A stretch of DNA of 64,000 nucleotides from Dipteris shenzhenensis (Eukaryota), in the NCBI GenBank assembly GCA_047967505.1, contig CM106538.1. The stretch is one strand, 5' to 3'. Below are positions 995 to 31,109 of this stretch, one piece after another. How positions within the stretch are numbered: the first letter of the stretch is position 1; every line of letters starts with the position of its first letter. Position numbers and translations under genes: made by a program. Below the pieces are notes generated by a model. The model made no database searches. It worked only from the letters and a program-made list of their open reading frames with translations, and was not told where the DNA came from.

Positions 995-1450
995 CACTTG
1001 GGGCTTTTGCATTTGGGCCACGATTTTGCAAGTAGATTGCAGATTTGTAGACAATTTGGGGCTTTTCTTGAATTTGCCCCATTTTTGGCTCAGTTTTGTT
1101 GTACAAATGGGGGCTTTTGGGTCTATTGCAGGCAGATTGCACAATACTTTTAGATTTGCATTGAGTTTGGCAACAAATTTCAGGCCATTTGATCACATTT
1201 GCAAATTACACCTTATTTTGGGGCTTTTTCATTCGGGCTACGATTTTGCAAGTAGATTGCAGATTTGTAGACCATTTGGGGCTTTTCTTGAATTTGCCCC
1301 ATTTTGCGCTCAGTTTTGCTCTACAAATTGGGGCTTTTGGGTCTATTGCAAGCAGATAACACAATACTTTCAGATTTGCAGTGAATTTGGCAACAAATTG
1401 CACGCCATTTGATCACATTTGCAAATTACAGCTTATTTTGGGGCTTTTTC
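995..1450. repeat. ~220 bp tandem duplication in the Copia 5' UTR
   Basis: cgattttgcaagtagattgc at 1021 and 1241; flanking sequence aligns. Confidence 0.85.
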
Positions 1451-1545
1451 AGATTTGGACAACAAGTCCTATTTTTTGCAGTTGCAAGCCTTGAGGCTAT
1501 CTTTTGGGTCACTTTGTCAATGCTTTTTGACTTGTCCCATTTGCA

Positions 1546-3858
1546 ATGGCTGGCAACAATCATGATTTATTTGGCATTCTTCATGAAGATGATAAGTTGG
1601 ATGGCACCAAATATCCGATGTGGTCTTATCTCATGAAACATATTCTTGTTGCAAGGCATTTTTGGAACATTGTTTCTGGGGTTGATCTGAGGCCAGCCAA
1701 TGCTACAATGGCTTGCCAGTCCCCCTGTAGAGGCTACTCCTCTTGATGCTTTATCCTCTAGCACCCCTGTTGCTGCTCTTCCAACTTAGGAGCAAACAAG
1801 ATGGGATGCAAGAGATCCAAATGCACATTCCTGTATTGCTTTATCATGCAAGAGAATCATTATTCCACACATCCGGTCATGCAGGATAGCAAAGGATGTT
1901 TGGGACAAATTGGCTTCTCTTTATCAGATTTGCAATGAGGCACGTGCTGCATATTTAAGAAGGCAATTGCAGGAAGTCAACATGAATGAAGGTGACTCTA
2001 TGGATGCATAGTTAACAAAGGTCAAGGACCTCATGGAACAACTTGCCAATATTGATGAAGTGGTGCCCAATTCTCAGCTTCTCAGTACCACATTGAATGG
2101 TTTGCCAGATAGAAATCAAGGGTTCGCTACAACCCTTTGACTAGTGGCCATGGGTAATCCAAACCACAACTGCTTTGATCAGTTAGTCACTTTGCTTTTG
2201 CAGGAAGAGCAAAGTCATGCTAATAGACAAGCTACTATTCCTGATCATGCATTTGCTTCTTAGCAGACAGGAAAAGGCAAGGCTTCCAAGCCTATGGGCA
2301 AGCCTAAATATGCACCTAACGCTGGCAATTCCTCCAATGCATCTCAAAATACAGCTGACAAGTCAAAGAAGAAAAGATGCAACTATTGTCGCAAGCAAGG
2401 GCATGAAAGTTCAGAATGCAGGAAGCGCATTGCTTCGAAGAAAAAGAAAGTAGGATTGACAGTCAATGCCTCACATGCAATTGAATCCCACGAGCCAGCA
2501 GAAGCCTCACATGCACATGCTCTCTAGGATGATTGGGCATGGACTGTCCATTGCTCCTTTGATCCCTCCAAAGTTGATGCATTCTTTACTGTTAATGTTC
2601 TTTTTGTGCCTGGAATTGAAGTCAACTTGATTTCAATTTCAATAATTGCCACTTCAAGTTTTAGAGTGATATTTGATGGATACAGATGCTTAGTATGTGA
2701 TCTTCATGATGACAATGCCATAGTTCTCACTGGCACTTTGCAAAAGCGGCTTTATCACCTTGATCATCACTAAGTTGTACTTTCTATTGAAGCATTTGCG
2801 ATTTTAGATTCACAGCTTGCTGAAACTCATCTTTGGCATGAGAGAATGGGTCATCTCAATTATAGAGCTCTTGCCAAGTTACATTCATAGGGCATGGCAA
2901 ATGATGTACCTCAAACTCACACAATTTCCAAACATGTGTGTGAGGGTTGTATTTTGGGTAAGATGCATCGGTTTCCTTTTCAAAAGAATTGTCCAAAATT
3001 CTCACAAAGGAAATTGCAGCTAGTGCACAGTGATGTCTGTGGCCTAATGAGGACAAATGCCATTAGGGGGTACAAATATTTCATGACTCTAATTGATGAC
3101 TTCACAAGGTATTGCTGGGTATACGCTTTAAAAGCCAAATCTAAAGTGTTCTCATGCTTTCAGAGCTGGCTGAATATGGTTGAGAATGAATCAAGATGGA
3201 AGCAACACAGATAGGGGGGAGAGTATATGTCAAAGGAGTTTGATGCATTTTTGTCTTCACGAGGCATTGTTCACTCATGCACTACTCCTTACACTCCTTA
3301 GCATAATCATGTTCCTGAAAGAAAGAACAGGTGCACTATGGAGATGGCTAGATGCATGCTTAAGGCCAAGTCCTTGCCCAATAAATTTTGGCTTGATGCA
3401 GTGATGTGTGCCAACTATGTGCTGAATAGATCACCTACAAGGGCATTGAGGTCTGTTACACCTTATGAAGCATGGAAACGTAGGAAGCCTTCACTTTCAC
3501 ACATGAGAGTTTTTGGATTTCTTGCATATGTTCATGTACCATCTCAGCTGAGACATAAGCTTGATAATAAGGCAATCAAATGCATACTTATTGGTTACAG
3601 CCAGGCGACAGAGGGTATCGGTTATACCAACCAAGTACTTGGAAGATTATTGTCAGTAGAGATGTAATCTTTACTGAAGATTCAGCTTCTCATCTTATGG
3701 ACTGCAAAGCTAGGCCACAAGTTGACATGTTTGATGCCTTTGACTCTTGGTTACCTCTGCTTCCCTCAGAGGGAGACTTCGACCAGCAACATGAGCTTCC
3801 CCTCCAACAAGCAATGATCAGCCAGCACCCCATGCTGATTTGTAGGTTCCTCTTTTAG
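1546..3858 (+). pseudogene. Degenerate Copia gag-integrase polyprotein
   Basis: ORF fragments 1546, 2294 (CX2CX4HX4C), 2894, 3338 (MARCML..W..AV..ANY..NRSP; KLDNKAIKCILIGY), 3580 (SRDVIFTE), with stops and frameshifts. Confidence 0.9.
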
Positions 3859-3912: not shown

Positions 3913-4728
3913 GGCTTGGTTTTTTGGTTTTCCACGGGCTTGGGGATTCTCTTTCTAGTTTCCCTTTCCTGTACTCTCTGCTATAGATTTTTGCATTTGT
4001 TTGACTTGTGCTTACACTTGCTTTTGAACTTGCCTCACCAATTTGGCAATAGATTCGTGTTTGGGTAAGTTTTTAGCTTCTCCCATTGCTTGATCCTGTG
4101 CCTCTCTACGCTTAGCGAAGGCATTCTATTTGATCTTACTATTGAGAAGGCTGGTAATCCTAAAATTGTTGATGGCATTTTTAAAATCTCGAACCAACTA
4201 ATTGTGCCATTCCTTGGTAGTGTTTTTCCAAAGGATTTGTGGTGTGTCAAGTAGGTTGAGATCAGTCATCATCAAAGCCAAAATTTCACGAAGGCTAGCC
4301 TCAAAAGTTTGAGGGTAGTCCATGAGCTTTTTCTCTAAATTAGAGACTGTGAGTTTTTGGGCTTCAATAAGCGCATCATGGCATTTCATCCTATACTCAT
4401 TGCATAGGGCTGTCAAAGACTGCTGGATCGCGGTCTGTTTTTCGATCCTTTTGCAAAAGCTCTTAGCCCTGTCTAGTGCTTGGAAGGTCTTTTTGTACTC
4501 TTCAATGGACTTTCTAAGAAAATCCAAGCAATGTGAAGGTAGCTTGTTGATAGCTTCCAAGAAAGTAGTCGGGGTACTCGCAATGGCATCATCTGCATCT
4601 CGACGACGCTTCTGTCAATTTCCAACATTACTGAAGGGGTTATGTGGCACATCTTCACTGACAAAACGAAAGACCTCAAGAGCTCTAGAAGAAGCTCCCT
4701 CGTGGTCGCCTTCCGCTATATTCACCAT
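3913..4728 (-). pseudogene. Second, 3'-truncated copy of PLE ORF1 (coiled-coil protein)
   Basis: Aligns with ~8778-9586; MVNIAEGDHEG start at 4728; RKSIEEYKKTFQALDRAKSF and EAQKLTVSNLEKKL shared. Confidence 0.8.
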
Positions 4729-4736
4729 GATAACAA

Positions 4737-5703
4737 GGTTTAGGTTTTAGAAAAATAAGAAAAGGTGTGTAGTAGTGAAGTGTGAGTGATTGGCTAGCTG
4801 CGGCAGCAAAAAATGAAAAAAATGGAATTTGCGAGGGTCGGTTATGTGGTTAAAACTGTGTCTAAAAAACTATGTGAAGAATGTGCTTGTGAAGTGTGCA
4901 AAGGTGCTTAAAGTGCTAAGAATACATGTGTAAGGTAGAATACTCAAGTATTAAACACAAAACTAAGTAACCAAAAGCTCATGGACAAAAAGATGGCCAG
5001 AAGCACACACTGTACATGAACAAATTGATGTTCAAGTACTAATAAACATCCAAGCAAGCATGAAACAGTACGTGAGCAACAAGTTGCACAAGTACTCACA
5101 CACAAGAGCAATACATGATCAACAAAGTTGCACAAGTACCTCACATAAAGACACAAAGACACAAGAGACAAAAAGAGATAGAAAATCCTCTTTGTATTAC
5201 AAGCGGTGCTTTGTTCTAGCTTTGTTTCGCTTGATATTCTCAAGCTCATCAATGGAATACTTGAAAACTGAGAACACGAATGAGAGAAGCTCCCCCTTTA
5301 TAGTGGGGGGAGGCCACTTTTTGTCCTCTTTTCTTATGGGATTACTATTGGGGCATCGCCACGTGTCAATAGCCCACAAAATCAAAAATTTGATTTCTAG
5401 GGACTGGTTATGTTAGCCCAAAAATAACCCTGAAATGCTCAAAAAATGGTCCAAAAAGAGTGTGAAAAGTCCCAAAATGACAACCCGAGCCTGAGAGGTC
5501 TCATATGCCATAAAGGCGGATGCTCTAGGGGGTGTCTTACAAGGTAGGACGTGCACGGCCTAACTAGACCTAGGCATCTTAAGACGTGATTTGACCAAAA
5601 AAGAGCGAAGGTTTCATGGATTCCTCTAGCAAATGATTGGTCGAGGTAGATGCTGTAGCTCAAGATGTTGTTGGCAAAGTCGATGAAGTTTAGGATTTAG
5701 GGT
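4737..5703 (-). repeat. PLE pseudo-LTR unit 2 (~965 bp)
   Basis: Direct repeat of 5704-6683; bounded by aggtttaggttttag and gtttaggatttaggg. Confidence 0.85.
5205..5260 (-). ncRNA. Degenerate type I hammerhead ribozyme motif (pLTR copy)
   Basis: Minus strand ttcca-tTGATGA-gcttga-gaata-tcaagc-GAAA: perfect 6 bp stem II; first core C and stem III altered. Confidence 0.6.
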
Positions 5704-6683
5704 TCTAGAAAAATAAGAAAAGGTGTGTAGCAGCGAAGTGTGAGTGGTTGGCCAGCTACGGTACCAAAACAGTTGCTATGGCAACAAAAAATTAAAAAAA
5801 TGGAATTTTCGAGGGCCAGTTATGCAGTTATGTGCTTAAAATTGTGTCTAAAAAACTGTGTGAAGAATGTGCTTGTGAAGTGTGCAAAGATGCTTAAAGT
5901 GCTAAACATGAGTAAGGTAGAATACTCAAGTAGTAAACATAAAACTAAGCAACCAAAAGCTCATGGACAAAAAGATGGCCAAGAGCATACACTGTACATG
6001 AACAAATTGATGTTCAAGTACTAATAGACATTTAAGCAAGCACGAAACAGTACATGAGCATCAAGTTGCACAAGCACTCACACATAAGAGCAATACATGA
6101 GCAACAAGGTTGCACAAGTACCTCACACAAAGACACAAAGACACAAGAGAGACAAAAAGAGATAGAAAATCCTCTTTGTATTACAAACGGGTGCTTTGTT
6201 CCAAACTAGTTTTGCTGGATATTCCCAAGCTCATCAATGGAACACCCAAAATGTGAGCATACAAATGAGAGAAGCTCCCCCTTTATAGTGGGGGGAGGCC
6301 ACTGTTTGTCCTCTTTGCTTATGAGATTACTCTTGGGGCATTGCCACGTGTCAATAGCCCATAAAAGCAAAAATTTGATTTTCGGGGACCGGTTATGTTA
6401 GCCCAAAAATAACCCTAAAATGCTAAAAAATGGTCCAAAAAGAGTGCAAAAAGTCCCAAAATGATGACCTGAGCCTAAGGGGTCTCATATGCCATAAAGG
6501 TGGTTGCTCCAGGGGGTGTCTTACAAGGTGGGACCCACACGGCCTAACTAGACCAAGGCATCTTAAGACGTGGTTTGACCAAAAAAGAGCAAAGGTTTCG
6601 TGGATTCCTCCAGCAAATGATTGGTCGAGGTAGATGCTGTAGCTCAGGATGTTGGCAAAGCCGGTGAAGTTTAGGGTTTAGGG
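5704..6683 (-). repeat. PLE pseudo-LTR unit 1 (~980 bp; begins inside the RT C-terminus at (CCCTAAA)2)
   Basis: Direct repeat of 4737-5703 and inverted repeat of 10092-10912. Confidence 0.85.
6189..6247 (-). ncRNA. Degenerate type I hammerhead ribozyme motif (pLTR copy)
   Basis: Minus strand gggtgttcca-tTGATGA-gcttgggaatatccagc-aAAA-ctag-tt-tggaac..caccc; stem I intact, two core transitions. Confidence 0.6.
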
Positions 6684-8320
6684 CGATTCCCAAGTTTAAA
6701 GCTTTCGTGTACTTTGACTAGTCAAGCTTAAGAACAAGGGGGGTCCTTTCACCCACCGAGGCTTGCCTTTTGGAAGATCCTTTAAGTAGAGTCGATCTCA
6801 TCCTGTAGGTGATTTTGTTGAAGCAATTCCGTAGAGTCTTATCTGGGTAACCACGAGATCTAAGGCATTGGTAAAACAAGATTCTAAGCCTCTTGTAGCC
6901 TTCAAACGTGCTTTCCCTGATGACATAGCGACGAAGTTCTCCGATGATGAAAGACTCTTTTTGGTGCTTCAGATGCCAAGAAGAGTAAGGAAGATATTGG
7001 TACCTATTCAACTCTTTTTGGTATTAACTAGAAGAGAGCTTTCCTGTGAAAGAAAAACATGGTCCCTTGAAAAGGTGAATGTCCAGAATATCAACAAAGG
7101 ATGTAGAGTAGCATGGGGTAATTCTAATATGGTCCTGAAAATCTTTTCCATAATCTTCAAGGTATTTGTCCAGATCAGATGAGGATCCCACCCATAAGCC
7201 GAATGCATCATCAATGTAGCGCCTGTAATATAACAGCTCTGAAGGAGGCTGTTTAACTTCCTACATGTTCTCCATGTGACAAAGGAAAAGGCAAGCATAA
7301 ACCACGGCAAAGTTGCTTCCCATAGCTATTCCTATTATCTGATGCTAAAATCTGCCTTCGAATTCTAAATAGCAATTTTTTAAAACCAAAGTGGCAAGAG
7401 ACATGATGAGGTTCAGTTCCATTATCTTGAAGTCATTCCTGATCATCTGCCGCAAGGCTGTAAGACCTTGATCCGTGGGAATACTAGGATATAGAGATTC
7501 CACATCAAAGGTAAAGAGAATGACATCTTTTGGTAAATGCAACTCAGAGATTTCTTTCAGTAGAGTGATAGAGTCCTTGAAATGTTGTTTGTGTCGAAGG
7601 GAATCGGAAAAAGTTCGTGGTGCAACCAAATAGAAGCATGCTCAAATAGAAAACCATTGTAAGAGTAGATTGGTTTGCCTACCAAAGCGGGTTTGTGGAT
7701 CTTCAGGAGGAAGTACAGGGCACAAACTCGAAAACCTGAACTAGGCTTCTGGAGGATGTATCTGACCTCTTCTGACGAAGGGATCTTTGACTCTAAGCAA
7801 ACCTGTTGCAACTGAAAGAATAGCTCCTCTAAGGGAACCTCCTGAATTGGTTCATATACTGCTGCATCTGTCAATTGCCTTTCTCCCTCTTTGACATACT
7901 AAGACTTATCCAAGATGGCTAGACCAAGATTTTTTTCAGCTAGTTTGATCACAATATCTTGGTTATTTTGCAATCTTTTGAGAGCCATTATCAAGGAAAG
8001 AGGAAGGTGGCATTTGGAGAGATTGGAGCAACGGGAGATAGATTCATGGAGAAGTTGTCTGCTGATAATGATAATATCTTCGAGAGGTTGGAAAGTTTCT
8101 CAAGGGTTCCAATTAGGATTGGGTACTCTGAAGAGTGAAGCAGGCCTATCCGGATTGGAGCGATAAAACCATCGAAGGTGCATTTATCTCACAAAACATC
8201 AAAGTCTACGAAAAGCTGAGTTGGTTCTGGAGGAGCGGACAGAGGGATGTAGCCCAAACCTAAACCCAAGAGTTTCTTCTCATGAAAGGAGAGACATATC
8301 TGAGAGAGGTTATGGATCAT
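6544..8320 (-). pseudogene. Penelope-like reverse transcriptase (ORF2), no endonuclease domain
   Basis: MIHNLSQ..EKKLLGLGLGYIP start; IVIKLAEKNLG; KIHKP; FDVESLYPSIP; GIAMGSNFA; YYRRYIDDAF; YLPYSSWH..GELRRY..RGYP; ends PIICWRNPRNLCSFLVKPRL..stop; several stops and frameshifts. Confidence 0.9.
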
Positions 8321-9586
8321 AGTGTTGGAGATACAGCAATCAAACTCAGAAGGAGTTTCCTAGAGAAAAAGAGAAGAGCATAATGTTCTGGATTTAGGAG
8401 AGGGAGCCAAAAGAGCCGCCTTAGCCACGGGTGTTTTGGCCTCTTTCTCGACTTGGTGGAGCAGAGTTGTTGCTTCGTGCACGTGGTCGTTTCTATTGTC
8501 TTCCTGAACCAGATTTCTGGCATTCTGGTTTTTGCATGACGAGGAAGGTTGTGCATGTGAGGGGGTGAAAGGCTTCTATCGAGCTTTGTTCCCCTACTAT
8601 TGTCGGTTTCCCTGCTAGTTTCCCTGTCAGTTTCCTTGCAAGTTTCCCTGTCAGTTTCCTTGTGAGTTTCCTTGCCGGTTTCCGTGCTAGTTCCCTTGCC
8701 GGTTTCCCTTTTGGATTTGAGAACGATTGCCCTAACTGTTTCTCTATCTGTTTCCCTTCCTGTTTTGTCTATTTCCTTGGTTTTTGGTTTTCCACGGGCT
8801 TGGGGATTCTTTTTCTGGTTTCCCTTGCCTGTACTCTCTGGTATAGATTTTTGCATTTGTTTGACTTGTGCTTGCACTTGCTTTTGAACTTGTTGCCTCA
8901 CCAGCTTGGCAATAGATTCCTGTCTGGGCAAGTTTTCAGCTTCTCCCATTGCTTGATCCTGTGCCTCTCTACGCTTGGGGAAGGCATTCTGTCTGATCTT
9001 ACTGTTGAGAAGGATGGTAGTCCTGAAACTGTTGATGGCAATTCTAAAATCTCAAACCAACCGATTGTGCCATTCCTTGGTAGTGTTTTCCCAAAGGATT
9101 TGTGGTGTGTCAAGTAGGTTGAGATTAGTCATCAAAGCCAAAATTTCACGAAGGCTAGCCTCAAAAGTTTGAGGATAGTCCATGAGCTTTTTCTCTAAAT
9201 TAGAGACTGTGAGTTTTTGGGCTTCAATAAGTGCATCATGGCATTTCATCCTATACTCATTGCATAGGGCTATCAAAGACTGCTGCATCGTGGTGTGGGC
9301 TACATCATCTAGCACTAAGAGTTGTGGTGGTTTCAACTTCAGACTATTGGGAATTGCACCTTCTTGCTTCTATTCTTCGAGCCTTTTACAAAAGCTCTTA
9401 GCCCTGTCTAGTGCTTGGAAGATCTTTTTGTACTCTTCAATGGACTTTCTAAGAAAATTGTCTTGACGACAATCGATTTCCAACATTACCAAAGGGGTTG
9501 TGTGGCACATCTTCACTGACAAAATGAAAGACCTCAAGAGAGCTAGAAGAAGCTCCCTCATGGTCACCTTCCATTATATTCACCAT
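8317..9586 (-). pseudogene. PLE ORF1: coiled-coil, basic protein with an 8-aa (24 bp) repeat block
   Basis: ORF pieces 9370-9567, 9052-9336, 8317-8949; Q/K-rich helix VRQQVQKQVQAQVKQ; ETGK/ETDR repeats at ~8600-8710; duplicated at 3913-4728. Confidence 0.75.
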
Positions 9587-9599
9587 GATAACAAGGTTC

Positions 9600-9930
9600 G
9601 GCTAGGTGCGACTGCAAAACAATAGCTGCGGAAGAAAAAAATGGAAAAAATGAAAATTTCGGGGGCCGGTTACGTGCTTAAAACTATGTCTAAAAAACTG
9701 TGAAGAATGTGCTTGTGAAGTGTGCAAAGCTACTTAAAATGCTAAGAATACATGAGTAAGGTATAATACTCAAGTACTAAACACAAAACTAGGAAACCAA
9801 AAGCTCATGGACAAAAAGATGGCCAAGAGCACACGCTATACATGAACAAATTGATGTTCAAGTACTAAACATACAAGCAAGCATGAAACAGTACGAGCAA
9901 TAGGTTGCACAAGTACTCACACACATGAGC
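9600..9930 (-). repeat. Partial pLTR/5' UTR upstream of ORF1
   Basis: Aligns with ~4810-5110 and ~5790-6090. Confidence 0.8.
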
Positions 9931-10421
9931 TATAGTTTTTTGGATCGTCTCTGCAACAAAATCCCCTGCAGGATGAGATCAACTCTACTCGAAGCATCTT
10001 CCAAAAGGCAGGGCTCCGGCGGGTAAAAGGACCCCCCTTGTTCTTAAGCTTGACTACTCAAAGTACACGAAAGCTTTAAACTTGGGGGTCACCCTAAACC
10101 CTAAACTTCACTGCCTTTGCTAACAACATCCTGAGCTACAACATCTACCTCGACCAATCATTTGCTGGAGGAATCCATGAAATCTTTGCTTTTTTTTGGT
10201 CAAATCATAGCTTAAGACACCTAGGTCTAGTTAGGCCGTGCAGATCCCACCTTGTAAGACACCCCTTGGAGCATCCACCTTTATGGCATATGAGACCTCT
10301 CAGGCTTGGGTCATCATTTTGGGACTTTTTACATTGTTTTTGGACTATTTTTGAGAGTTTTAAGGTTATTTTTAGGCTAACATAACCGGTCTCCAGAAAT
10401 CAAAATTTTGATTTTATGGGC

Positions 10422-10496
10422 TATTGACACATGGCGATACCCCAAGAGTAATCCCATAAGCAAAGAGGACAAAAAGTGGCCTCCCCCAACTATAAA
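10422..10496 (+). promoter_or_regulatory. Candidate Pol II promoter in the pLTR (G-box/ABRE-like element plus TATAAA)
   Basis: TATAAA at 10491-10496 is conserved in all three full copies; GACACGTGGC is perfect at 5358-5367 and 6343-6352 (minus strand) and reads gacacatggc here. Confidence 0.5.
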
Positions 10497-10530
10497 GGGG
10501 GAGCTTCTCTCATTTGTATGCTCACATTTT

Positions 10531-10589
10531 GGGTGTTCCACTGATGAACTTGAGAATATCAAGCGAAACTAGTTTGGAACAAAGCACCC
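10531..10589 (+). ncRNA. Minimal type I hammerhead ribozyme (best-preserved copy)
   Basis: gttcca(10535-40)-CTGATGA-a-cttga/gaata/tcaag-c-GAAA-CTAG-TT-tggaac(10575-80); stem I extended by gggtg/caccc across a bulge; palindromic 4 nt stem III. Confidence 0.8.
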
Positions 10590-10896
10590 GTTTGTAATAC
10601 AGAGAGGATTTTCTATCTCTTTTTGTGTCTCTTGTGTCTTTTTGTCTTTGTGTGAGGTACTTGTGCAACTTTATGGCTCATGTATTGCTCTTGTGTGTGA
10701 GTACTTGTGCAATTTTTGCTCATGTACTGTTTAGTAGCACATTCTTCACATAGTTTCTTAGACACAGTTTTAAGCACGTAACCGGCCCTCGAAATTTCCA
10801 TTTTTTTATTTTTTGTTGCTGCGGCTACTGTTTTGCTGCCGCAACTGGCCAATCACTCACACTTCACTGCTACATACACACCTTTTCTTATTTTTC

Positions 10897-10963
10897 TAAA
10901 ACCCTAAACCCTGCCTGCAAATTGGTTTAGGGTTAGGGTTAGGGTCATGGTCAAGGTTTAGGG
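10897..10963. repeat. Short interstitial telomeric repeats in opposite orientations
   Basis: CCCTAAACCCT (10902-10912), spacer, TTTAGGG TTAGGG TTAGGG (10926-10944), TTTAGGG (10957-10963). Confidence 0.8.
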
Positions 10964-13096
10964 TAGACAGAAGAAGAGATGCCAATCTTTTAAGTTTCTT
11001 GCAAGAGATTTTGTTTAGTGCATTGGTGTCTGATTAGCAAATGTGAAGTTTGCTACGGTCTTGTGGACTTCTTGAGGCACATTGTCAATATTAACAATTT
11101 TTGTTTGTGCCTTGAGGAGAGCCATGACAGCATCGCCAAGTTGATGAGGTAAACTATAGAGATAATGGCGTTTGGCAGAAGTGTCAGAAAAAAGACCAGC
11201 TCTATAAATTAGCTACTATACATAAGCGTTATAGGCCTCTAGCTAGAAAAGATCACAAAGTTATAGAGCAGAATACAATTGGATGCCTATGTATGATCAT
11301 CAGTGAATGTCGGCAGAAATTGATTAGAGATTGCCGCAATCAAGGCATCAAGAGCATTGGGTTGGTGATTACCATCAACATTGGAAAAGATTTACTCTTT
11401 TGATTCGTCAAAAAGGAATTCCCACCAATTGCCGAGTACACCAGTGAAGCCTTTGGTAGTCTCGACTGCAGCATCACGTGGATTCCATCTGTGCACTATG
11501 ACTAGAGACATCATGTGACCATAAAATATTTTTAGAAGATCCTTCATTGCCTGAGGAGAGGTAGCATCAATATTAAGGATATAACCCAAAAAGGATTTGT
11601 GCTGCAAGCATCGCTGCAAATCACGTTGCTCGTCGAGATCACCGTGCATGAAATGAGTTTGGAATTCGGCGCGCATGAACTGGGAGTCAGGGGTATCATG
11701 AAAAGCCATACGACGTCCACGCCATGGTTGCTGCTATTGATGTTGTTGTTGCTATGGAGCCGAATCTTCATCCATTGGCTCAACCTTCGCTCCTTGATTC
11801 ATGTAAAGTGTCGAGAGATCAATGGAGGATGAAGTATCAGATCTGGGAGAAGCAGGTGGTGATTGTGGAGGGAGCTGAGGAGGTGGCAAGGGCATGGGAT
11901 CAACAGGTTGCGAAGGACCAGGGACTGCTTTGAAAGGATCACGTGAGTCAATATTGGCAAAATGGGTAGGATTAGTCCATTCGCATCGGTGGCCCTAGTG
12001 CCAAGTATTATCATACAAGTGGGAGGATTGATGGCAATAGTTTGTATGATGATGTGTCGGGATATTGACGGCAATAGTGTGCTTGTACTATGATGAGTAG
12101 CATCGGTAGGTAGGCGAGTAGCACTTTTGGAGGACATCCAGTCATGAATGGCGTCAGCCTTTTCAGGCGACAGACTTTGAGCAGAGGTAGTTGCTTCAAA
12201 TGTTGAGTCAGGGACGTCATCAGGAGCACATGGTATGGAAACATGGGAGGAAGATGGAAAAGAAAGACGCATCACTCTTTTCCCATGGTCACGATGAGGG
12301 CGAAGCTTGATGATAGACTTGGAGGGAGCATCCTCAATCTGGAATGTAGGAAGTTGAGAAAAAGCTTCCTCAAGAACAATCTGGTAATCCATTTCCCATT
12401 CAACAGGCATGGGAAGAGCATCAAACTTGAAGCGAGTAACATCTGCATTAGTTTTTCCATAAAGAATGCACTCATCTTTTGTGTTGACATGACGGGAAAT
12501 ATGATTGATAGTGGATACTAAATAGTTGATAGACTTGACATGAATTGCACAATACCTAGGATGGGGTTTCATAGAGAGACCCTTGACCTGGACATAAAGA
12601 CGAAGTATAGTAGAAAGATGCAGATTTGCTAAGGACATCTTAAAGTTCGGATATACAATTGTATGGATAGGTTCACGGTTAAGGTTACCATGAATAAGAC
12701 CAATTCTAGCATCTTTGAGATGAAGATGACGGGTAACTACAAGACTAGCCATACATGTGGCATTTACACCCATACGGAATAATGGTTCTATAGCTAAGAC
12801 GAAACAACCATAGTGTATGTACTGGTATCCTAAGTCCTGAAAAGCATCAATCTCATGGGGAGTAAACAGAGGAAGATATACACCAGTGGATCCTTCGTCA
12901 TAGCAATATTAACAACCACTTTAGCAATTTTAATATGCTTGAGAGCACGAAAGTGGAAAGCAGAGAACTTATAGATATTTTCAGGGTTGATAATCAGCAT
13001 GTTCCAATCAGTCTTGGGATCAATAATTTTAGAGGAAGAAGAAGCAGCATGGGTAGAGGTGAAGCGGGAAGAGAAAGATCACATTGCAATAGCCAT
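10964..13096 (-). pseudogene. Second viral copy: 30K-type movement protein plus N-terminal coat protein (truncated)
   Basis: Aligns with ~22180-24782; YIHYGCFVLAIEPLF, GLIHGNL..VYPNF; GFTGVLGNWW; lacks ~0.5 kb present in copy 1. Confidence 0.85.
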
Positions 13097-15226: not shown

Positions 15227-18200
15227 CCCTTACCTCAGGAGGAGACTCTTGATCCTATTTAGACAGACGCCTTCCAGACTCCAGAGGTGGATGTTGCTGC
15301 AACCCTAGACACTACAGTTCCACATCAGGAGGGGCCTTTAGATCCACCAGCCCCAGTCACTTTGGTCTCTGACCCCTTGGTTTCTGACCATGAGGGGACT
15401 ACAGGTACTTCTTCCCTGCAGACTGCTCCTGCCATAGTCAAGACAACGAGAAAGTGTAGGTGTAGATGAGGGCTCCTGATTCCTCTTCACCCCATCCACA
15501 GGCCTCCTCAACCCCCAGCTCCGGTTCTGCTGATAGAGAACTGGCAGGTCCTTCTCCTCCATCTTCCACGAGTGTAGGTCTTCTTTGCACTCCTTGGCCA
15601 GACTTGCTTATCAAGAATTCTTTTTTGGCATTGGCAGATTCGGCGACTTTCATGGATGATGAGGAGTTTGTGCCCTCCACCTTAGGGGTCCCGATCATTG
15701 GGATTCCTTCTAACAGGGCCTCCCTTTCAGCAGGTGTGGGGATCCTTTCACCTGTTGAGTTTCCTGCCCTCAGCAGGAGTGTTTTGGCCCAGGGGAAGTT
15801 GGTCTCCTCTACTAGGTCAGGTAAGCCTTTCCATCCAGCATCCTCTTGTCGATGAGGATAGTCAGCTGGAACATACAGGGCCTAGGCGGAGTTCCACACC
15901 GTCACTGTAGGTAGCTGATCCGGAACTAGCTTCATCCAAGCATCACTGGAGGTGCTATTGATATCCTTTTTATCCAGGAACACAAGATGGATGCCAGTGA
16001 TTGCTCTAAGTCTGGCAGACTGCTTTCAAGACATACCTTCTGGTTGCCTGCTATGGGCACAAGGGGAGGTACTTGCATTTTGATCTCTCTTTCTATTCTC
16101 CCCTTGGTTGTTGGTCATGGTATTATCTCCCCTTCTAGAGCTCAATGGATCATTATTTTGATTGGAGGGCGTAAGATTGGTCTTCTCAATCTTTATGCTC
16201 CCAACAACAGAGGGGAACAGATCTCCTTTTGGAAGGAGTTACTCTCTTGGGTCCCCATTGCAGATTCTTGGATCATTGGTGGCGACTTCAACATGGTTGA
16301 GTTGCCTTCAGACAAAAAGGGAGGTAGACAGGGTGGAATTCATTCTTTGGAGAGGGCAGCCTGGGATGCCTTTCTCTTTTAGTTCAGTGGCAGAGACACT
16401 TGGTTGGATGATGCCTTTCATATTATGCCACAGTCACTCCTGTACTCTTGGTTGAACATGAAAATACACATGCCCAGCACGGATTAACAGATTTTATGTA
16501 GACAATTGGGCACTTGACAGAGGAGGATCTATATGCATTTCTACTCGGGTTTCCACCTCAGATCATTTTCCAATGGTGTTGCAGATTATTGAGCCTCATT
16601 GGAGAGGATGCTCTGCTAGTGTCAGGATTCCGGATGCTTTTTATGCAGAGGAGAGCCTCACGAAGGATATTTTATAGATTTGGGTTTCTCACATATAGGG
16701 TGGAGCTATCCATCCATCTCAGGTAGCTGCAGCCTTATCCGGAATTAGTGACTATTATCATACAGTCAATGATTCTAGGAGACGTGAGATTCTCAAATGT
16801 GAGATTGGTATACGCCAGCAGTTAGGATCCCTTCAGAGGGAAGAGCAGAAGAGGCCCATAGATGCTTGGATTTAGGAGCGCCTTGTTGCAGCAAGGGCTC
16901 ATTTGCAGACATTGTTGGATCAGAGAGCAGAGTATGCCTTTCATGCACGGGAATCCTTTTGGATTCAAATGGGTGGCAGGGTCAACAAACACTTTTTCTC
17001 TACTCATGGGCCCAGATATAATAGAGATAGTGTTTCATAGCTTGTTGACTCAGACGGGGTGTTACAGTCACATCCTGATGCTGTCATGCATGTAGCTTCA
17101 GATTTTTTTGCATCCCTTCTTACTGCATATCTAGGCACACAAGCCATTGACGATGCTAGAGAGGTTATTTGGCAGTGTATCCATGTATTGGTTAAGGATG
17201 AGATGTATGTTTCTTTGGATGCACCTTTCACCAATGCACAATTCAAGATTGCATTACTTGCCCTTCACAAGGGCAAGTGCCCAGGTTCAGATGGACTTAC
17301 TGCCTCCTTTTTTATTACTTTTTGGGAGCAGATTGGTGATCACATTACATCAGCCCTATACGGCATGTGGGACTCTGGTGAGATGCCGGGATCACTTACA
17401 GATGGTCTCGTTCATCTCATCCCAAAGGGGGGTAATAGGAATCTTGTGTCTCAATGGAGACCCATCACTCTTTTGGGAACTTTTTACAAGATTCTGGCGA
17501 AAGCCATCAGTCTGTGGCTATATATTTTTCTTCTAGATTTGATTTATGACATGCAAACAAGGTTTGTGCATGGCAGAAGTATTTTTGATAATATTTTCTC
17601 ATTTTGGGAGGCCTCAGAATGGGCCATGCAGAGCCGCCAGAGATTGGCCATTCTACTCTTGGACTTTGAGACAGCTTATGATAGAGTAGACTAGGATTTT
17701 TTAGAGGGTACTCTATCTCGCTTTGGTTTTTCAGATGCATGGATTAGAGGAGTATCCTCTCTCTACAAATCAGCCCATAGCCAGTTGCTCATTTGGGGGG
17801 TAAGAGGGGACAGGTTTCAGATTTCCAGATCCGTCCGCCAGGGATGTCCTCTTGCCCCGTTTCTTTTTCTATTTGTGGCGGAAGCTATGAGTATCTACAT
17901 TAGATCTCAAGCTGATATTTATGGGCTGAGGCTTCCTATCCACTGGGAAGAAGAGCTCCTGGATAGTGAGTTGGCAGAGGACATGGCTGTTTTTTTGGAT
18001 GCCTCCCCCAGGACACTCACTTCCTTCCGGACAACCTTGGATTTGTTTTGCATGGCTACAAGTGCACACATTAATTGGCATAAATCCAGTGGTTTTTGGA
18101 TTTGCGAGGATGACACCCCGGATTGGGGTAATGATATTGGCTTCACTTAGGTATAGAGGGGCTTCTCTATTAGATATTTGGGCTGCCAGGTTGGGGTGGG

Positions 18201-20285
18201 CATCTCTCCCTCACAACAGTTTGCTCCGGTGTTGGAAAGCATTAGAAGAAAGCTCCTTTTCTGGAGCTCAGCCAAACTTGACTTGGCCTCTAGGGTGGTG
18301 GTGGTTAACCAGGTCCTTCTAGCCACAGCATGGTTTATATGCTCTTGTTGGTGCCACTCTAGCGATTGTATCACTCAGCTTAAGAGGCCTGTACGAAACC
18401 TTTTATGGAGTGGTCTAGATGGCACAACTGATGTTATAGTCAAAGGGCTTGGAGACCTTGATTCTTCCTACAAGAGAAGGGGGTTTGAATATCATCGACC
18501 CAGATCTACAGTTCAGAGCTTTACTCTGCAAGTTTGTTGTGAGAGGGCTTACAAGAGCCTTGGAAGGATTTTTTTATTAGATGCATACAGTCTCGCACGC
18601 CCACTTCAGGAGAGGATTGGACAACAGTACTAGATGGGTTTTCACCACAGCCCACCTCAGGTCTCCCTCTTCCCCTCTTATGGTTGCTATCCTGAAAGCA
18701 TGGGCCAGCTTCAGGAGTACTCTTCGCAAGATTCCCCCATCCACCCATGAAGAGATTGAAAGGCAGCCTATCATGTGGAATGATAGGTTTTTGGATGAGC
18801 TTGGCAGACCACTTGGAGCTTCTCCTTACATGCAATGGCCAAGATGGGAGAGGGGCCCTGCATTTACAGTGGGAGCATGGAAAGCCTTCAAGAAGCTTCC
18901 TGCAGACCAACAGGCCCAGATGGTTCTTAATCTCAGAGGGAGTGTAGGGAGAGTCCAACAGATTGATGCAGCCTTGCCCTTGGATTGGGTGGACACAGAT
19001 GACATGCCTATTACTTGCTCCACCTGGATGGGGGCATTTTCTAGATTGGGAGTTCCTTTACAGGTGATTGCTTTTCTTGACCCACATGAGGATGCCTTAG
19101 TATTTGATGTTTCTTCGGGGGGCAGGCTGTCCAGATCCACAGACGATATCTTGTTGGAGGTACCATTTTAGCCAGTCAGGATAGTAGGCTTCATGGAGCA
19201 TGGCTCTCTTTCACAGTGGTACTTGGATCCTGACCTACTTCTCCTTGCCCTTGGCTCATGGAGGTTGTGGCTCTATGGAGGTGTCCCAATTAAGTTTTTG
19301 CAGTGGGACCCTAGGGAATGGGAATGGATAGATGAAGGGCACCGAGAGAAGGGCATCCCCTTCTTTTGTTACACGGTCAATAATGCCAGAAATTCCAGCT
19401 CAGCTCTAGGGGTTGGAAGCCTACCAAAGCTCCTCATTGGGAGAACTTTTAGATTTCTACTGACTTGTAGAGAATTTTTTAGCAGAGGCTCTAGAAATCC
19501 CACTGGAATAGAAAAATCACACTCTTCTTTTGGCTTTCTATTCATGGTGGGATAGCAGTGAACCATTGGAGATCCAAGTTTAGAGCTGGCCCTTCTTGCC
19601 CTCGCTGCCTTTCTACTTTGGAGACAATACAACACTGCCTATGGGATTGCAGATCGGTGAGAATTATATGGAAGGGGATTGCAAGACTTTTCAGCACTTT
19701 TGTTTGCCTACCTTTCTATATGACCTGGGGATCAGTGACTTGGCTTACTCTTTTAGGACCCTTGGTATTTTTTGAGAGACTTGACTCCTCTTGGGCTCTT
19801 CACATCCGACGACACCTTGTGGAGTCATGCTCTCTAGAGGATGTTCTGGCCACTCTTTTCAGGGTTGCTCACTCCTCGGTCGACTCTCCATGGGAGATCC
19901 TAGCTAGCATTGCAGCATGGCACATTTGGAGAGCCAGATGCACTGAGGCTTTGGAGGGTTCTCAGGTTCACCCTTCTCAGACCTTGGCCAGTACTTGGAC
20001 AGATACGATACACACTCTGATGGCCATTTGGGTGACCATGCAAGGATCATCTCGAGCAGCCTCCTCTAGGAGAGTTACTTTTCTTAGAGATTGGAGAGAT
20101 GCTCCCTTCTTTGCTGAGACTTCTATAGGGTTGAGATGGCATTTTCAGCCTCAGCCTTGGTTTCTTTCTACCTCATTCCTCTGAGGTGTTTTTATTACAT
20201 GCCTAGCATGGTGTATTTCTGCACAGATCTTGCTCTAGCGGGTTTCTTTCTTACTTAATAGAAGTCTATTTTTTGAAAAAAAAAA
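15227..20285 (+). mobile_element. 5'-truncated L1-clade LINE with poly(A) tail and 12 bp TSD
   Basis: TSD aaacctagtgct at 15215-15226 and 20286-20297; A-run 20276-20288; APE endonuclease, RT and C-terminal zinc finger motifs. Confidence 0.95.
15900..20184 (+). pseudogene. L1 ORF2 (APE endonuclease-RT-zinc finger), disrupted
   Basis: NLYAPN, IIGGDFN, KCPGSDG, WRPITLL..YKILAK, LDFETAYDRV, VRQGCPLAP, LAED (for ADD), CPRC..ETIQHCLWDC. Confidence 0.92.
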
Positions 20286-21899: not shown

Positions 21900-24782
21900 G
21901 CATTGTTGAGAGTTACGTGGCTTCTCAGTGCAGTCTTTGGCAAAATGACCCTTTTTCCCACAAATAAAACAACTAAATTTACTAGCTGTGAAAGGGCGGT
22001 GTCATAGGAATCATTGGGGACACCTGAAATAGCGCTTGCGCCATCGTAGACATCAAAGCTTTGGAAAAGAAGTCAATCCATATGAGCATTTGGAATGTTG
22101 GGTCTGGGATCTTTTGTAACTTTTGGAGCATGGCTTGTTCGAGGGACAGAACTACTTTTGTCCCACAAATTATTCATAGACAAAAGAAGAGATGCCAATC
22201 TTTTTGAGTTTCTTGCAAAGAGTTTGTTCAATGCATTGGCATCTGATATATACCTAGACCATTTGGAAGAGATTAGTAAACATGAAGTCTGCTACGGTCT
22301 TGTGGACTTCTTGAGGCACATTGTTGATAGTAACAATTTTTGTTTGTGCCTCGAGGAGAGCCATGACAGCGTCGCCAAGTCGATGAGGTAAACTATAGAG
22401 ATAATGGCATTTGGCAGAAGTGTCAGAAAAAAGGCCAGATCTATAAATTAGCTATTGTACATGAGTGTTATAGGCCTCTAGCTGGAAAAGATCACAAAGT
22501 TGCAGAGTAGAATACTCATTGGATGCTTGTGTACAATCATCAATGAATGTCAATAGAAAGTGATTAGAGATTGCTACAATCAAGGCATCAGGAGCATTGG
22601 GTTGGTGATTACCATCAACACTGGAAAAGATTTGCTCTTCTGATTCGTCATCAAAAAGGAACTCCCACCAATTGCTAAGTACACTAGTGAAGCCTTTGGT
22701 AGTCTCAACTGCAGCATCATGGGGATTCCATTTGTACACTGTGACTAGAGACATCATGTGACCATAAAATATTTTCAAGAGATCCTTCATTGCCTAAGGA
22801 GAGGCAGCATCAATATTAAGGATATAACCTGGAAGGGATTTTTCCTGCAAGCATCGCTACAAATCAGGTTGCTCATCGCAATCGCTGTCCATAAAATGAG
22901 TTTGGAATTTGGCACGCATGAACTGGGAGCCAGGGGCATCATGAAAAGTTATACAACATCCATGCCATGGTTGCTGCTGTTGTTTTTGTTGTTGTTGTGG
23001 TGCCGGATCTTCATCCATTGGCTCAACCTTCACTCCTTGATTCATGTAAAGTGTTGGGAGATCAGTGGAGGATGAAGTCTTAGATCTAGGAGAAGCAAGT
23101 GGTGATTGTGAAGGGAGCTGAGGAGGTGGCAAGGGCATGGGATCAACGGGTTGTGGAGGAGTAGCAACTGCTTTGAAAGGATCGTGTGGGTCAACATTGG
23201 AAAAATGGGTAGGATCAGTCCATTCATGTTGGTGGCCCAAGTGCCAAGTATTATCACACAAGTGGGAGGACTCAGTAACAGGCTGAACAAACTGTGAATC
23301 TATAGAAGGGACTGAAGTGGTAGGTAGAATATGAATAGACTAAGGGAGGATAGGCCAAATCATAAGACTAATAGCCTTCAATGGAGTGAATGAACCATCT
23401 ATAGGAGTGGTAGAGGCTGGAGGCAAGGAAGGAGGAAAAGACTTATGCACAGAGGAATGTACAGAGGGAACAAGACTAGTGTGTAGCTGTTTGAGTTCTT
23501 TTAGTACAGTTTGGGTATTCTAATCTAATTTACCAACAGCTAAATTGTGTGAGTTGCACCAATTCAATTGTTGTTGCTCTATTGGCATGTCATTATCATC
23601 CACCTATGTCAATGCATAAGGAGCATGCACTGACTTAAGCGTGCCATCCTCGAATGTAGACTGGAATCCTTTGGAGCAGGGCCAATTTACTAGACGAACC
23701 ATATTCATAGGATGGAAACGCTCGGAAGCAGTAATGTTATCATAGTTCATATGATGATATGATGGGAGATTGACGACAATAGTAGCATCGATAGGTAGGC
23801 AAGCGACACTTGTGGAAGACATCTAGTCATGAATGGCATCAGCCTTTTCAGGCACAGCAGACTTTGAGCAGAGGTAGTTGCTTCAGATGTTGAGTCAGGG
23901 ACATCATCAGGAGCGCCTACTATGGAAACATGGGAGGAAGATGGAAAAGAAAGGCACATCACTCTTTTTCCATGATCACGATGAGGGTGAAGCTTGATGA
24001 CAAACTTGGAGGGAGCATCTTTAATTTGGAATGTACGAAGTTGAGAAGAAGCTTCCTCAAGAACATTCTGGTAATCCATTTCCCATTCAACAGGCATGGG
24101 AAGAGCATCAAACTTGAAGCGAGTAACATCTGCATTAGTTTTTCCATAAAGAATACACTCATCTTTTGTGTTGACATGATGGGGAATAAGATTGAAAGTA
24201 GATAATAAATAGTTGGATAGACCTGACATGAATTGCACAATACACAGAATGGGGTTTCATAGAGAGACCATTGACCTGGACATAAAGATGAAGTGCAATA
24301 GAAAGATGTGGATCTGCTAAGGACATCTTAAAGTTCAGATACACAATTGTATGGACAGGTTCATGATTAAGGTTACCATGAATAAGACTGATTCTAGCAT
24401 CTTTGGTATGAAGATGACGGGTATCTACAAGACTAGCCATACATGTGACATTTACACCCATATGGAATAATGGTTCTATAGCTAAGACGAAACAACCATA
24501 GTGTATGTACTGGTATCCTGAGTTCTGAAAAGCATCAATCTCATGGGGAGTAAATAGAGGAAGATATACACCAATGGATCCTTCGTCAGCAATATTAACA
24601 ACCACTTCAGAAACTTTAATATGCTTGAGAGCACAAAAGTGGAAAGCAAAGAACTTGTAGATATCTTCAGGGTTGATAATCGGCATGTTCCAAGCAGCCT
24701 TGGGATCAGTAATTTCAGAGAAAGAAGAAGCTGCACGGGTAGAGGTGAAGAAGGAAGAGAAAGATCGGATTGCAATAGCCAT
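21900..24782 (-). pseudogene. Caulimovirid movement protein plus coat protein (copy 1)
   Basis: ORF 24159-24782 with YIHYGCFVLAIEPLFH..LVDTRH..LIHGNL; CP region 22452-22790; zinc knuckle ~21930-21975. Confidence 0.88.
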
Positions 24783-25494
24783 TGGATATATGAAGGCTTG
24801 GAGACTTTACTACTCCCACAGAGACCTCAGGCTACAAAACCTGCCCTCCCTTGCAACACATGATGAGGATCCAGGTGGCCTACAGATTGTGCATTCATTG
24901 GGGAGGCATGGACATTGATCCCCATGGAGCAATGCTCTAACATGACCAGATCTCAAGTCATTCATAGCTTGCCGGGCCAAGTCAAAGTCTATGTGTGTTT
25001 TGCAACAACAAACATTCCTATCTTTGAGTTTCTTGATGTAGTAGGGCTTACAATGCTCAAAGCTCCTCTGCCTAATTGAAATGTTTGGATTCTGATCCAC
25101 AAACTTGAGATACAACTCCGTCTGCTGATGCAACATGCGAGAACAACAGAATAATGAGCCTCCTTTTTGCTACTACTAAAAGAATACAAAACACAATCTA
25201 ATTAAAGTATGTAATGAAGCAAAACAATTTTCAACCACCATGTTGGTTTAGGACAGTCACAATTTCAATCACCAAGATGGTTTAGGACATGTTTAGGATA
25301 GTCGCAATTTCAACCACCGAGATGATTTAGGACACTGTCACACTTTCAATCACCAGGATGGTTTAGCCTGATGGTCTCAACTTCACATATTAGACAATAA
25401 CAAGTATATTTCTTTTTATTTTTGAATTTTGCCATTAGAAAATAACAATATATTGCTTTTCATTTTCGAATTCCACAATTTAACAGTGGTATAT

Positions 25495-31107: not shown

Positions 31108-31109
31108 TT

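Follow-up and report, generated by a model that had tools for sequence, protein, structure and literature searches.

In this study, we describe, within a 64,000-nt stretch of Dipteris shenzhenensis DNA (hereafter the window), an array of one Penelope-like element (PLE) at 3915-10912, with the minus strand as its sense strand and its copies placed head-to-tail, which is very probably a dead, roughly 10%-diverged, endonuclease-less retroelement of the Coprina type. The recurrence of a TATA box paired with a hammerhead ribozyme and of C-rich repeats, together with the location of some relatives at (CCCTAAA)n, argues for an endonuclease-less, telomere-priming PLE of this type. Among mobile elements, PLEs without an endonuclease are those most closely related to telomerase. 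As a genomic feature, the locus is one decayed copy belonging to a type of family already described in plants: endonuclease-less EN(-) PLEs have been reported in Selaginella, Pinus taeda and Picea abies, according to the accessible parts of PMC12477314, PMC4209133, PMC13159263 and PMC9033089 (Table 1 therein), so that the window element joins a known kind and its novelty had initially been estimated too high. The details new here are the (CCCTAAA)2 inside the reverse transcriptase (RT) reading frame and the pseudo-LTR anatomy of a 982-nt unit. The locus and its relatives provide a detailed plant anatomy of an endonuclease-less PLE, in which a TATA box fires into a hammerhead, a leader follows, and the boundary between pseudo-LTR and ORF1 bears a telomere-complement repeat.

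Organization of the array

The initial annotation had proposed a Penelope-like array at 3913..10912, made of head-to-tail units and an inverted fragment. ORF1, RT and units are indeed present, and repeat comparisons recovered every part where it had been placed (Table 1). Each unit follows the order ORF1, RT, pseudo-LTR, and the array ends at 9935-10912 in an inverted, 5'-truncated copy on the plus strand. ORF1 copy A, which matches the ORF1 of relatives (tblastn; L001, E=2e-38), is cut off at 3913/3915, where it meets a Ty1/copia pol fragment, with copia rve/SH3 domains at 2891-3664; at the other end, an endogenous caulimovirid fragment lies beyond the G-rich run. The PLE units are roughly equidistant (K2P 0.10-0.12), and neither blastn nor tblastn found further PLE copies in the 64-kb window outside 3915-10912.

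Table 1. Parts of the PLE array and adjoining repeat (window coordinates)
Feature	Position	Strand	Remarks
ORF1 copy A, 5' part	3915..4728	-	ATG 4728-4726; 5 in-frame stops
C-rich telomere-like repeat, sense CTAAAACCTAAACC	4737..4750	-	closes unit; ORF1 ATG 8 nt further on
Pseudo-LTR unit u1	4751..5688	-	RT tail, 3'UTR, TATA box 5302-5297, decayed hammerhead 5263-5204, leader
CCCTAAATCCTAAA	5689..5702	-	3' repeat of u2 fused with the RT-internal motif opening u1
Pseudo-LTR unit u2	5703..6543	-	past RT stop: 3'UTR, TATA box 6287-6282, hammerhead 6247-6188, leader
PLE reverse transcriptase pseudogene	6544..8415	-	natural stop 6546-6544
(CCCTAAA)2 within RT frame	6670..6683	-	codes A-L-N-P-K-L
ORF1 copy B, decayed	8317..9586	-	ATG 9586-9584
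5'-truncated pseudo-LTR, leader part only	9599..9934	-	upstream of ORF1 copy B; terminal repeat degenerate
Inverted copy	9935..10912	+	157 nt RT 3' end (9935-10091) plus one unit
Inverted copy, (CCCTAAA)2 coding TLNPKL	10092..10105	+	within RT frame
Inverted copy, TATA box	10491..10496	+	
Inverted copy, hammerhead	10531..10590	+	core intact
Inverted copy, terminal AAACCCTAAACCC	10899..10912	+	
Degenerate G-rich TTTAGGG/TTAGGG run	10927..10964	+	outside element, 12 nt beyond C-rich end

A reverse transcriptase without endonuclease

The window RT is a pseudogene with six premature in-frame stops and three frameshifts; the YIDD motif noticed earlier is intact, read as RYIDD, in a gene that is nevertheless dead. 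The features of a PLE-type RT (N-terminal motifs, DKN/DKG, RT1-7 and thumb) are recognizable, including an ADKN-type motif (ADKNLG), the thumb and an ICWRNPRNL tail. It is aligned by tblastn to residues 1-618 of the intact relative P0004 over 8415-6565, and the best homolog found by phmmer shows 64% identity (E=1e-137). Its named relatives are proteins of Cryptomeria, Ginkgo and Selaginella, the nearest of them including a Selaginella protein at 45% identity. Pfam returned no match to the window RT pieces or to intact P0004, from a library apparently without PF28514 and PF26215; the RT homologs carry precomputed PF28514 (DUF8422) and PF26215 (HTH_animal).

In line with the original description, the RT frame opens at IHNLS..LLGLGLG and stops 9 codons past ICWRNPRNLCSFLV, which matches the intact homologs (alignment A1), and its end is that of the intact 560-626-aa relatives from Cryptomeria, Ginkgo and Selaginella. 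A GIY-YIG search of the window and of 70 related loci, translated in all six frames, found none (best E=0.16 among 8488 ORFs), with positive controls recovered in 6/6 cases at E<=7e-59. Among the matches listed in two homolog searches, PF01541 occurred in 1/120 and 5/120, all at <=36% identity. In the RT tree, the window sequence falls within a 27-row clade (support 99) together with the Selaginella, Cryptomeria and Ginkgo proteins, and all six GIY-YIG-positive sequences sit apart from it in a separate 22-row clade. The tree was built without curated Coprina, Athena or TERT references, and the name of the clade therefore rests on the Selaginella protein, a putative equivalent of Repbase Sm1/Sm2.

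The window copy is heavily mutated and, according to the accessible parts of PMC8557442 and PMC10473749, EN+ Dryad elements occur in conifers, which would fit an endonuclease-bearing PLE (either a conifer Dryad, which belongs to Penelope/Poseidon, or a Chlamys/Naiad element, whose endonuclease is N-terminal) that lost its endonuclease in this copy only. Such a loss is, however, extremely improbable, given the outcome of the six-frame search, the separate position of the EN+ sequences in the tree, and the intact relatives, which end at the same residue and whose reading frames extend no more than about 75 residues upstream of the IHNLS motif. The window element shows neither the C-terminal GIY-YIG endonuclease of Dryad (Penelope/Poseidon) nor the N-terminal GIY-YIG with CxC linker of Chlamys/Naiad: no GIY-YIG was found upstream of the RT, and visual inspection of the linker revealed no CxC motif. 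The membership of the endonuclease-less class put forward in the initial annotation is thus supported by the RT end, the GIY-YIG absence, the tree and the conserved C-rich repeats.

The accompanying ORF1 is present as well, and it is conserved and placed head-to-tail after the RT in the relatives L002, L054, L006 and L014. The coiled coil once attributed to it is only faintly suggested by the AF2 model (long helices, pLDDT 50.7) and, as confidence for this piece is low, we call ORF1 no more than helical. The ORF1 and RT frames overlap but differ in intact relatives; in the window, the frame of ORF1 copy B is continuous, with 244 stop-free codons reaching the RT N-terminus. One ORF is taken as typical of Coprina and two of Athena in the accessible part of PMC13159263.

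A pseudo-LTR with TATA box and hammerhead ribozyme

The 982-nt unit is a pseudo-LTR composed of RT tail, 3'UTR, TATA box, type-I hammerhead, leader and C-rich repeat, next to which comes the ORF1 ATG. It starts at the (CCCTAAA)2 inside the RT frame and runs through the RT stop codon and a 3'UTR of about 260 nt to a TATA box, which precedes the ribozyme by 37-50 nt; a leader of 300-490 nt follows the hammerhead, and the unit closes with 1.5-2 telomere-complement repeats, C-rich and immediately followed by the ATG of the next ORF1. The TATA box is found in 3/3 window copies and in 11/11 relatives examined. A script located a sense-strand hammerhead in 14 related loci, and inspection by eye added L014 and L051. 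Pairing is kept in 90.6% of cells, vs 27-40% with the partners slid, compensatory changes occur in 4/11 pairs, and fold z-scores range from -1.8 to -3.9. The window element has the hammerhead in the pseudo-LTR that is typical of Coprina, although its copies are mutated: each of the three window ribozymes carries a damaging change, that of u2 having C3->U and G12->A. Rfam gave nothing at E<=1 over 8 kb and nothing at the gathering score in 16 loci, the Hammerhead_3 match being sub-threshold (14.2 bits vs a gathering score of 48.5, E=1.3; 121 nt). Our literature search did not find a TATA box described in combination with a Penelope-like hammerhead.

Two such units of about 982 nt stand in tandem (4737-5702 and 5689-6683; K2P 0.10 apart), and this duplication begins exactly at the RT-internal (CCCTAAA)2 motif. 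Since each unit carries a type-I hammerhead, they could be a retrozyme-like, non-autonomous pseudo-LTR derivative, amplified via hammerhead-processed RNA separately from the autonomous insertion, and the accessible part of bioRxiv 10.64898/2026.07.22.740005 reports an origin of animal non-LTR retrozymes from the pseudo-LTRs of PLEs. We consider this unlikely: only two units are found, both with mutated ribozymes, and L014 and the inverted copy show the same continuity from RT tail to unit although neither has a duplication. Non-LTR retrozymes consist of non-coding tandem units, each with a type-I hammerhead; the two units here have decayed hammerheads and are contiguous with an autonomous copy. 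The duplicated pseudo-LTR would be best explained by a template jump, or by a deletion, between (CCCTAAA)2 copies flanking ORF1-RT.

Telomere-like repeats

The 14-mer CCCTAAACCCTAAA, allowing at most one mismatch, has three matches in the window vs 0 in each of 100 shuffles. The 10-mer CCCTAAACCC has 15, whereas the shuffles averaged 3.4 and never exceeded 9. Of these 15, seven fall within 5693-10963; the other eight were rejected as PLE parts, four of them sitting inside the two LTRs of a gypsy element.

The five heptamer sites annotated earlier (4737, 5688, 6670, 10092 and 10902) are all C-rich on the sense strand of the element. This orientation holds, whereas their reading as junctions fails at 6670 and 10092, since 6670-6683 and 10092-10105 are inside the RT coding frame and so are not junctions of separate insertions. 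Reverse-complement telomeric 3' repeats on the sense strand, as in Coprina, are found at 10899-10912, 4737-4750 and 5689-5702. They are conserved in relatives: 43 C-rich vs 2 G-rich runs were counted in 20/70 loci, many of which are near-duplicates. L029 and L051 terminate in perfect (CCCTAAA)n arrays, and L031, 99.3% identical to L029, is a 5'-truncated copy capped by such an array; the perfect sense-strand arrays adjoining relatives measure 34-106 nt. These three relatives are telomere-adjacent, unlike the window copy, around which no telomeric array was found within 3.9 kb to the left or 53 kb to the right.

The two in-frame motifs encode an ALNPKL-type peptide (LNPKL) that is kept in 9/21 clade members, and a G-rich telomere-like string at 8258-8267 likewise encodes the conserved N-terminal LLGLGLG motif, so that coding sequence can mimic a telomere repeat. 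It might thus be argued that the heptamers are unrelated to telomeres, being LNPKL codons and a short leader motif that resemble CCCTAAA by chance. This is very unlikely, because the inverted copy ends exactly at its C-rich repeat, because the arrays next to relatives are perfect and one of them caps a 5' end, and because C-rich runs prevail so strongly, although many of the loci counted are near-duplicates.

Relation to known elements

The features of Coprina and Athena considered here are those given in the accessible parts of PMC8557442, PMC6431247 and PMC13159263. Coprina (Repbase Sm1/Sm2 of Selaginella moellendorffii; fungal Cc1 and Pc1; Coprina-1_Alen) lacks an endonuclease, as does the window element, and shares with it a DKN-type motif, a helical ORF lying upstream, a type-I hammerhead within pseudo-LTR repeats and short reverse-complement telomeric repeats at the 3' side, the relatives of the window element being also located at telomeric arrays. 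The window copy differs in being interstitial and dead, in having its hammerhead 150-490 nt upstream of the terminal repeat, and in its second telomere-complement motif, inside the RT frame. The EN(-) PLEs of Pinus taeda and Picea abies (Lin et al. 2016, via the accessible part of PMC9033089), with which comparison is by description only, are likewise endonuclease-less; the closest named homologs of the window RT are also of seed plants, namely the gymnosperm proteins of Cryptomeria and Ginkgo. The Athena/Terminons of bdelloid rotifers resemble the window element in the absence of endonuclease, in 5'-truncated telomere-capped copies, in head-to-tail chains and in a C-rich repeat near the hammerhead, Athena having an ORF1 with coiled coil plus RT. 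In contrast, they are rotifer-specific, use other telomere repeats, can be giant, and their hammerhead immediately adjoins the repeat (PMC6431247, accessible part).

Proposed priming and origin of the locus

A promoter in the pseudo-LTR would drive transcription of tandem PLE copies, and the C-rich repeat of the resulting RNA may anneal to the G-rich 3' end of DNA at a telomeric overhang or at a healed break. This DNA end would then prime reverse transcription by the element's own RT, so that an endonuclease would not be needed. The putative priming site is the boundary between pseudo-LTR and ORF in a multi-copy RNA, a position comparable to that at which PAc, an EN+ PLE (Poseidon, Anolis), initiates reverse transcription internally in vitro (PMC11167929). 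In PAc, too, tandem copies give a multi-copy RNA, a pseudo-LTR promoter is presumed, the hammerhead lies at the pseudo-LTR/ORF boundary, and the AC-rich priming site is close to the ORF start rather than at the RNA 3' end (PMC11167929). However, PAc has a GIY-YIG endonuclease, which cuts AT-rich DNA (PMC11167929), and its start site is without primer homology, whereas the putative one of the window element is complementary to telomeric DNA. The coincidence of the pseudo-LTR/ORF1 boundary with the in vitro start site of an endonuclease-bearing PLE offers a testable link between the two priming modes.

Regarding the locus itself, the layout of this single example suggests that two cDNA tracts, extended from two DNA ends, may have grown toward each other and been joined at 9934/9935. 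The left one, 3'-truncated, would have started at a break in the copia element, at a junction that carries no telomeric seed, and the right one at a short G-rich seed, so that the locus might stem from the repair of an internal break or from the fusion of two element-capped ends. It is thereby a possible example of break repair by an endonuclease-less PLE. A less likely, albeit serious, possibility is that the array grew stepwise as a terminal (subtelomeric) chain and was internalised later by chromosome fusion or rearrangement, rather than being built at an internal break. Head-to-tail units separated by short C-rich repeats are known from Athena/Coprina chains (accessible parts of PMC6431247 and PMC13159263). 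At 10899-10964, a C-rich repeat is opposed to a G-rich one, and the flanks are unrelated transposable elements, copia on the left and caulimovirid on the right. Nevertheless, the leftmost copy has neither a 3' end nor a telomeric seed at 3913, the locus has no long telomeric array, and divergence is about the same across the units, as compatible with a single event as with several.

A more far-reaching proposal, which we regard as rather doubtful, would be that the RT-internal (CCCTAAA)2 is kept for its RNA sequence rather than for the peptide, as a second site for telomere annealing or template switching, and that jumps between the two telomere-complement sites on either side of ORF1-RT make the pseudo-LTR. 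A cDNA stopping at the RT-internal (CCCTAAA)2 would then end in a ready-made telomere seed, and the locus would record an ancient chromosome break patched from both ends by an endonuclease-less retroelement.

Organization of the array

Repeat finding, a blastn comparison of the window with the element's sense sequence, and tblastn searches using intact homologs established the layout of the array and confirm the ORF1, the Penelope-like element (PLE)-type reverse transcriptase (RT), the head-to-tail units and the inverted copy described in the initial annotation. The minus strand is the sense strand of the element, except in the inverted copy. ORF1 copy A is cut at 3913/3915, where it abuts a Ty1/copia pol fragment. 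Neither blastn nor tblastn found additional copies of the element in the whole 64-kb window; in the remainder, all domains identified belong to transposons or endogenous caulimovirids.

Features of the array and its surroundings in the window
Feature	Position	Strand	Remarks
Tandem repeat, 220 bp	998–1451		2.1 copies, 92% matches; left of array
Ty1/copia pol fragment	2891–3664		positions are those of the rve and SH3 domains; left of array
ORF1 copy A	3915–4728	−	ATG at 4728
Two tandem units	4737–5702 and 5689–6683	−	about 982 nt each
RT	6544–8415	−	
ORF1 copy B	8317–9586	−	
5'-truncated unit	9599–9934	−	
Inverted copy	9935–10912	+	3'-terminal 157 nt of the RT and one unit
Type-I hammerhead	10531–10590	+	within inverted copy
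Caulimovirid ORF	11802–12908	−	movement-protein domain PF01107, E=8e-12; directly flanks array
LINE	15930–20181	+	Exo_endo_phos endonuclease, RVT_1, zf-RVT; split over several frames
Second caulimovirid ORF	24162–24806	−	movement-protein domain PF01107, E=2e-15
Ty3/gypsy direct repeat	29819–31001 and 40102–41298		1.2 kb, 91% identity
Ty3/gypsy domains	33042–38553		gag, protease, RT, RNase H, integrase; between the two repeats

ORF1 copy B contains at 8601–8709 an in-frame 12/24/36-nt repeat that codes for a (K/R)ETD/GKET-rich stretch. The two movement-protein ORFs are endogenous pararetrovirus fragments, and the one next to the array has a sole database relative, 40% identical.

A reverse transcriptase without endonuclease

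The window RT is a pseudogene with three frameshifts and six premature stops, in which RYIDD is intact; Pfam did not recognise its pieces. A sequence search with it returned 183 matches at E≤0.001, the best being the intact homologous protein P0004 (64% identity, E=1e-137); the named matches, all uncharacterised, come from Cryptomeria japonica, Ginkgo biloba and Selaginella moellendorffii. The intact relatives, 560–636 aa long, start at most about 75 residues ahead of IHNLS..LLGLGL and end 6–13 residues past ICWRNPR.L.SFL, which is the exact end point of the window RT frame, so that the stop right after the thumb motif, as originally read, is borne out. The conserved N-terminal LLGLGLG is encoded on the sense strand (8258–8267) by a string that is G-rich and resembles a telomere repeat, so that the RT bears a G-rich mimic close to its start in addition to the C-rich motif close to its end.

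Searching matches of length 341–1087 with P0004 as query, PF01541 was found in one of the 120 matches listed, and with the window RT as query in five of the 120 listed, all five at most 36% identical. Pfam detected the GIY-YIG endonuclease (EN) in all six PF01541-type proteins versus none of five members of the EN-less group, three of which are 962–1066 aa long. The absence of GIY-YIG, proposed from the sequence at the outset, is further upheld by an HMM made from the endonuclease parts of the six EN+ proteins (controls E≤7e-59), whose best hit among 8488 six-frame ORFs from the window and 70 related metagenome loci had only E=0.16. In a midpoint-rooted FastTree of 160 proteins, assembled without curated PLE references, all six EN+ sequences fall with three named animal proteins in one clade (22 rows, support 99), and the window RT stands apart from them in a clade that also holds the proteins from Selaginella, Cryptomeria and Ginkgo (27 rows, support 99).

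EN(-) PLEs have previously been described in Selaginella (Repbase Coprina Sm1/Sm2) and in the conifers Pinus taeda and Picea abies (PMC12477314, PMC4209133, PMC13159263 and PMC9033089), and the array is therefore of a kind already known. It contributes helpful anatomical information and two leads of modest weight, namely the pairing of a TATA box with a hammerhead and a coding telomere motif.

Telomere-like heptamers and telomeric relatives

The CCCTAAA-type heptamers of the array are real and non-random, and all five sites are C-rich on the sense strand, as first reported. Their interpretation as junctions stands for 10899–10912, a true element end where the inverted copy finishes with AAACCCTAAACCC, followed by unrelated DNA, and fails for 6670–6683 and 10092–10105, which are RT codons. 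The latter two are part of the reading frame, some 45 codons short of the RT stop, and code for ALNPKL and TLNPKL, respectively; since they are within the RT frame, the repeated unit begins inside the RT gene. Of the 21 clade members with a readable C-terminus, 9 keep LNP[KTE]L here, among them the Selaginella protein and members of both seed-plant subclades, and the related locus L014 has nucleotides identical to those of the window at this RT-internal motif. The element end at 4737–4750 stands 8 nt before the ORF1 ATG, and at 5689–5702 an element end is fused with the motif internal to the following unit. In a related locus (L059, 2635–2671), a perfect telomeric palindrome, with G-rich and C-rich repeats head-to-head, lies about 90 nt past the RT stop; the order at window 10899–10964 (C-rich, 12 nt, G-rich) is the reverse.

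The relatives tie the family to telomeres. Exact telomere-type runs of at least 12 nt are present in 20 of the 70 metagenome loci, 43 being C-rich versus 2 G-rich on the RT sense strand, counts that are not independent because many loci are near-duplicates. In loci L029 and L051 the pseudo-LTR is followed by a terminal, perfect (CCCTAAA)n array, and L031, 99.3% identical to L029, is 5'-truncated inside ORF1 and capped by 106 nt of (CCCTAAA)n. Terminal arrays and 5' capping are both signatures of Athena and Coprina (PMC8557442, PMC6431247 and PMC13159263).

ORF1 is conserved as well (L001, E=2e-38), and in L002, L054, L006 and L014 it comes after the RT in head-to-tail order. Intact relatives have an ORF1 and an RT that overlap but occupy different frames, in agreement with the frameshift drawn for PLEs in the Fig. 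1 legend of PMC8557442; the window copy has a single frame common to both across the boundary. In five intact relatives (L001, L010, L020, L023 and L036) ORF1 ends in ..RPKN[VDG], overlapping an RT frame that starts with a basic KKR.ARRAKR stretch; the RT frame of L001 has no ATG ahead of the RT domain. These features suggest that the RT may be expressed by ribosomal frameshifting.

Hammerhead and TATA box in the pseudo-LTR

The repeated unit is a pseudo-LTR (pLTR) with a conserved interior. The hammerhead of the inverted copy comprises helix I, CUGAUGA, a helix II of 5–6 bp and GAAAC, then a helix III of 2 bp with a 2-nt loop, forming the palindrome ACUAGU, and finally the cleavage site, followed by the returning strand of helix I. 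In the tandem units the hammerheads carry C3→U in combination with either G12→A or a scrambling of helix III. A script found the motif downstream of the RT, on the sense strand, in 14 related loci, and visual inspection found it in L014 and L051. Among 12 aligned sequences, 90.6% of cells pair, versus 27–40% with slid partners; four of 11 pairs vary on both sides, and the covariation score was matched by none of 500 shuffles. Rfam gave only a sub-threshold match. The shape agrees with the canonical type-I hammerheads of Selaginella PLE pseudo-LTRs, as reported in PMC4209133.

A TATA box lies 37–50 nt upstream of CUGAUGA in all three window copies and in 11 of 11 relatives examined, within sequence that does not itself align. 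We found no paper, in the literature searched, pairing 'TATA box' with PLE hammerheads; a pseudo-LTR promoter has been assumed for other PLEs (PMC11167929). The hammerhead is 150–490 nt upstream of the C-rich repeat, whereas in Terminons the two are immediately adjacent (PMC6431247).

A model for priming and for the origin of the locus

We propose that the pseudo-LTR promoter would drive transcription of tandem copies and that a G-rich 3' DNA end may anneal to the C-rich repeat where the pseudo-LTR meets ORF1, thus priming the RT. In the case of the EN+ element PAc, reverse transcription starts in vitro at the same place, by internal initiation on multi-copy RNA at an AC-rich stem-loop situated just within the ORF (PMC11167929). 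Two (CCCTAAA)2 copies flank ORF1-RT, and a template jump or deletion between them would produce exactly the pLTR-pLTR junction seen.

As for the locus itself, the 3' ends of the minus-strand copies point left and that of the inverted copy right, the two 5'-truncation points meeting at 9934/9935. The right side, read on the minus strand, consists of flank, then GGGTTTAGGGTTT, then antisense element, and this tract looks as if a short telomeric seed had primed it. No seed is present on the left, where the 3'-truncated element abuts copia; 3' truncation without a seed is a hallmark of endonuclease-independent insertion at breaks. Both flanks are unrelated transposable elements. The array may have arisen by repair of a break from its two sides or by fusion of two ends each capped by the element; both scenarios fit.

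The units are about equally diverged (K2P 0.10–0.12, transition:transversion about 3:1), which resembles the LTR divergence (91% identity) of the Ty3/gypsy element in the same window. Each LTR of the latter has two CCCTAAACCC-like 10-mers. GC skew is strongly negative (−0.35 to −0.45) at 30001–34000 and 40001–42000, regions that overlap partly with the gypsy LTRs and their vicinity.
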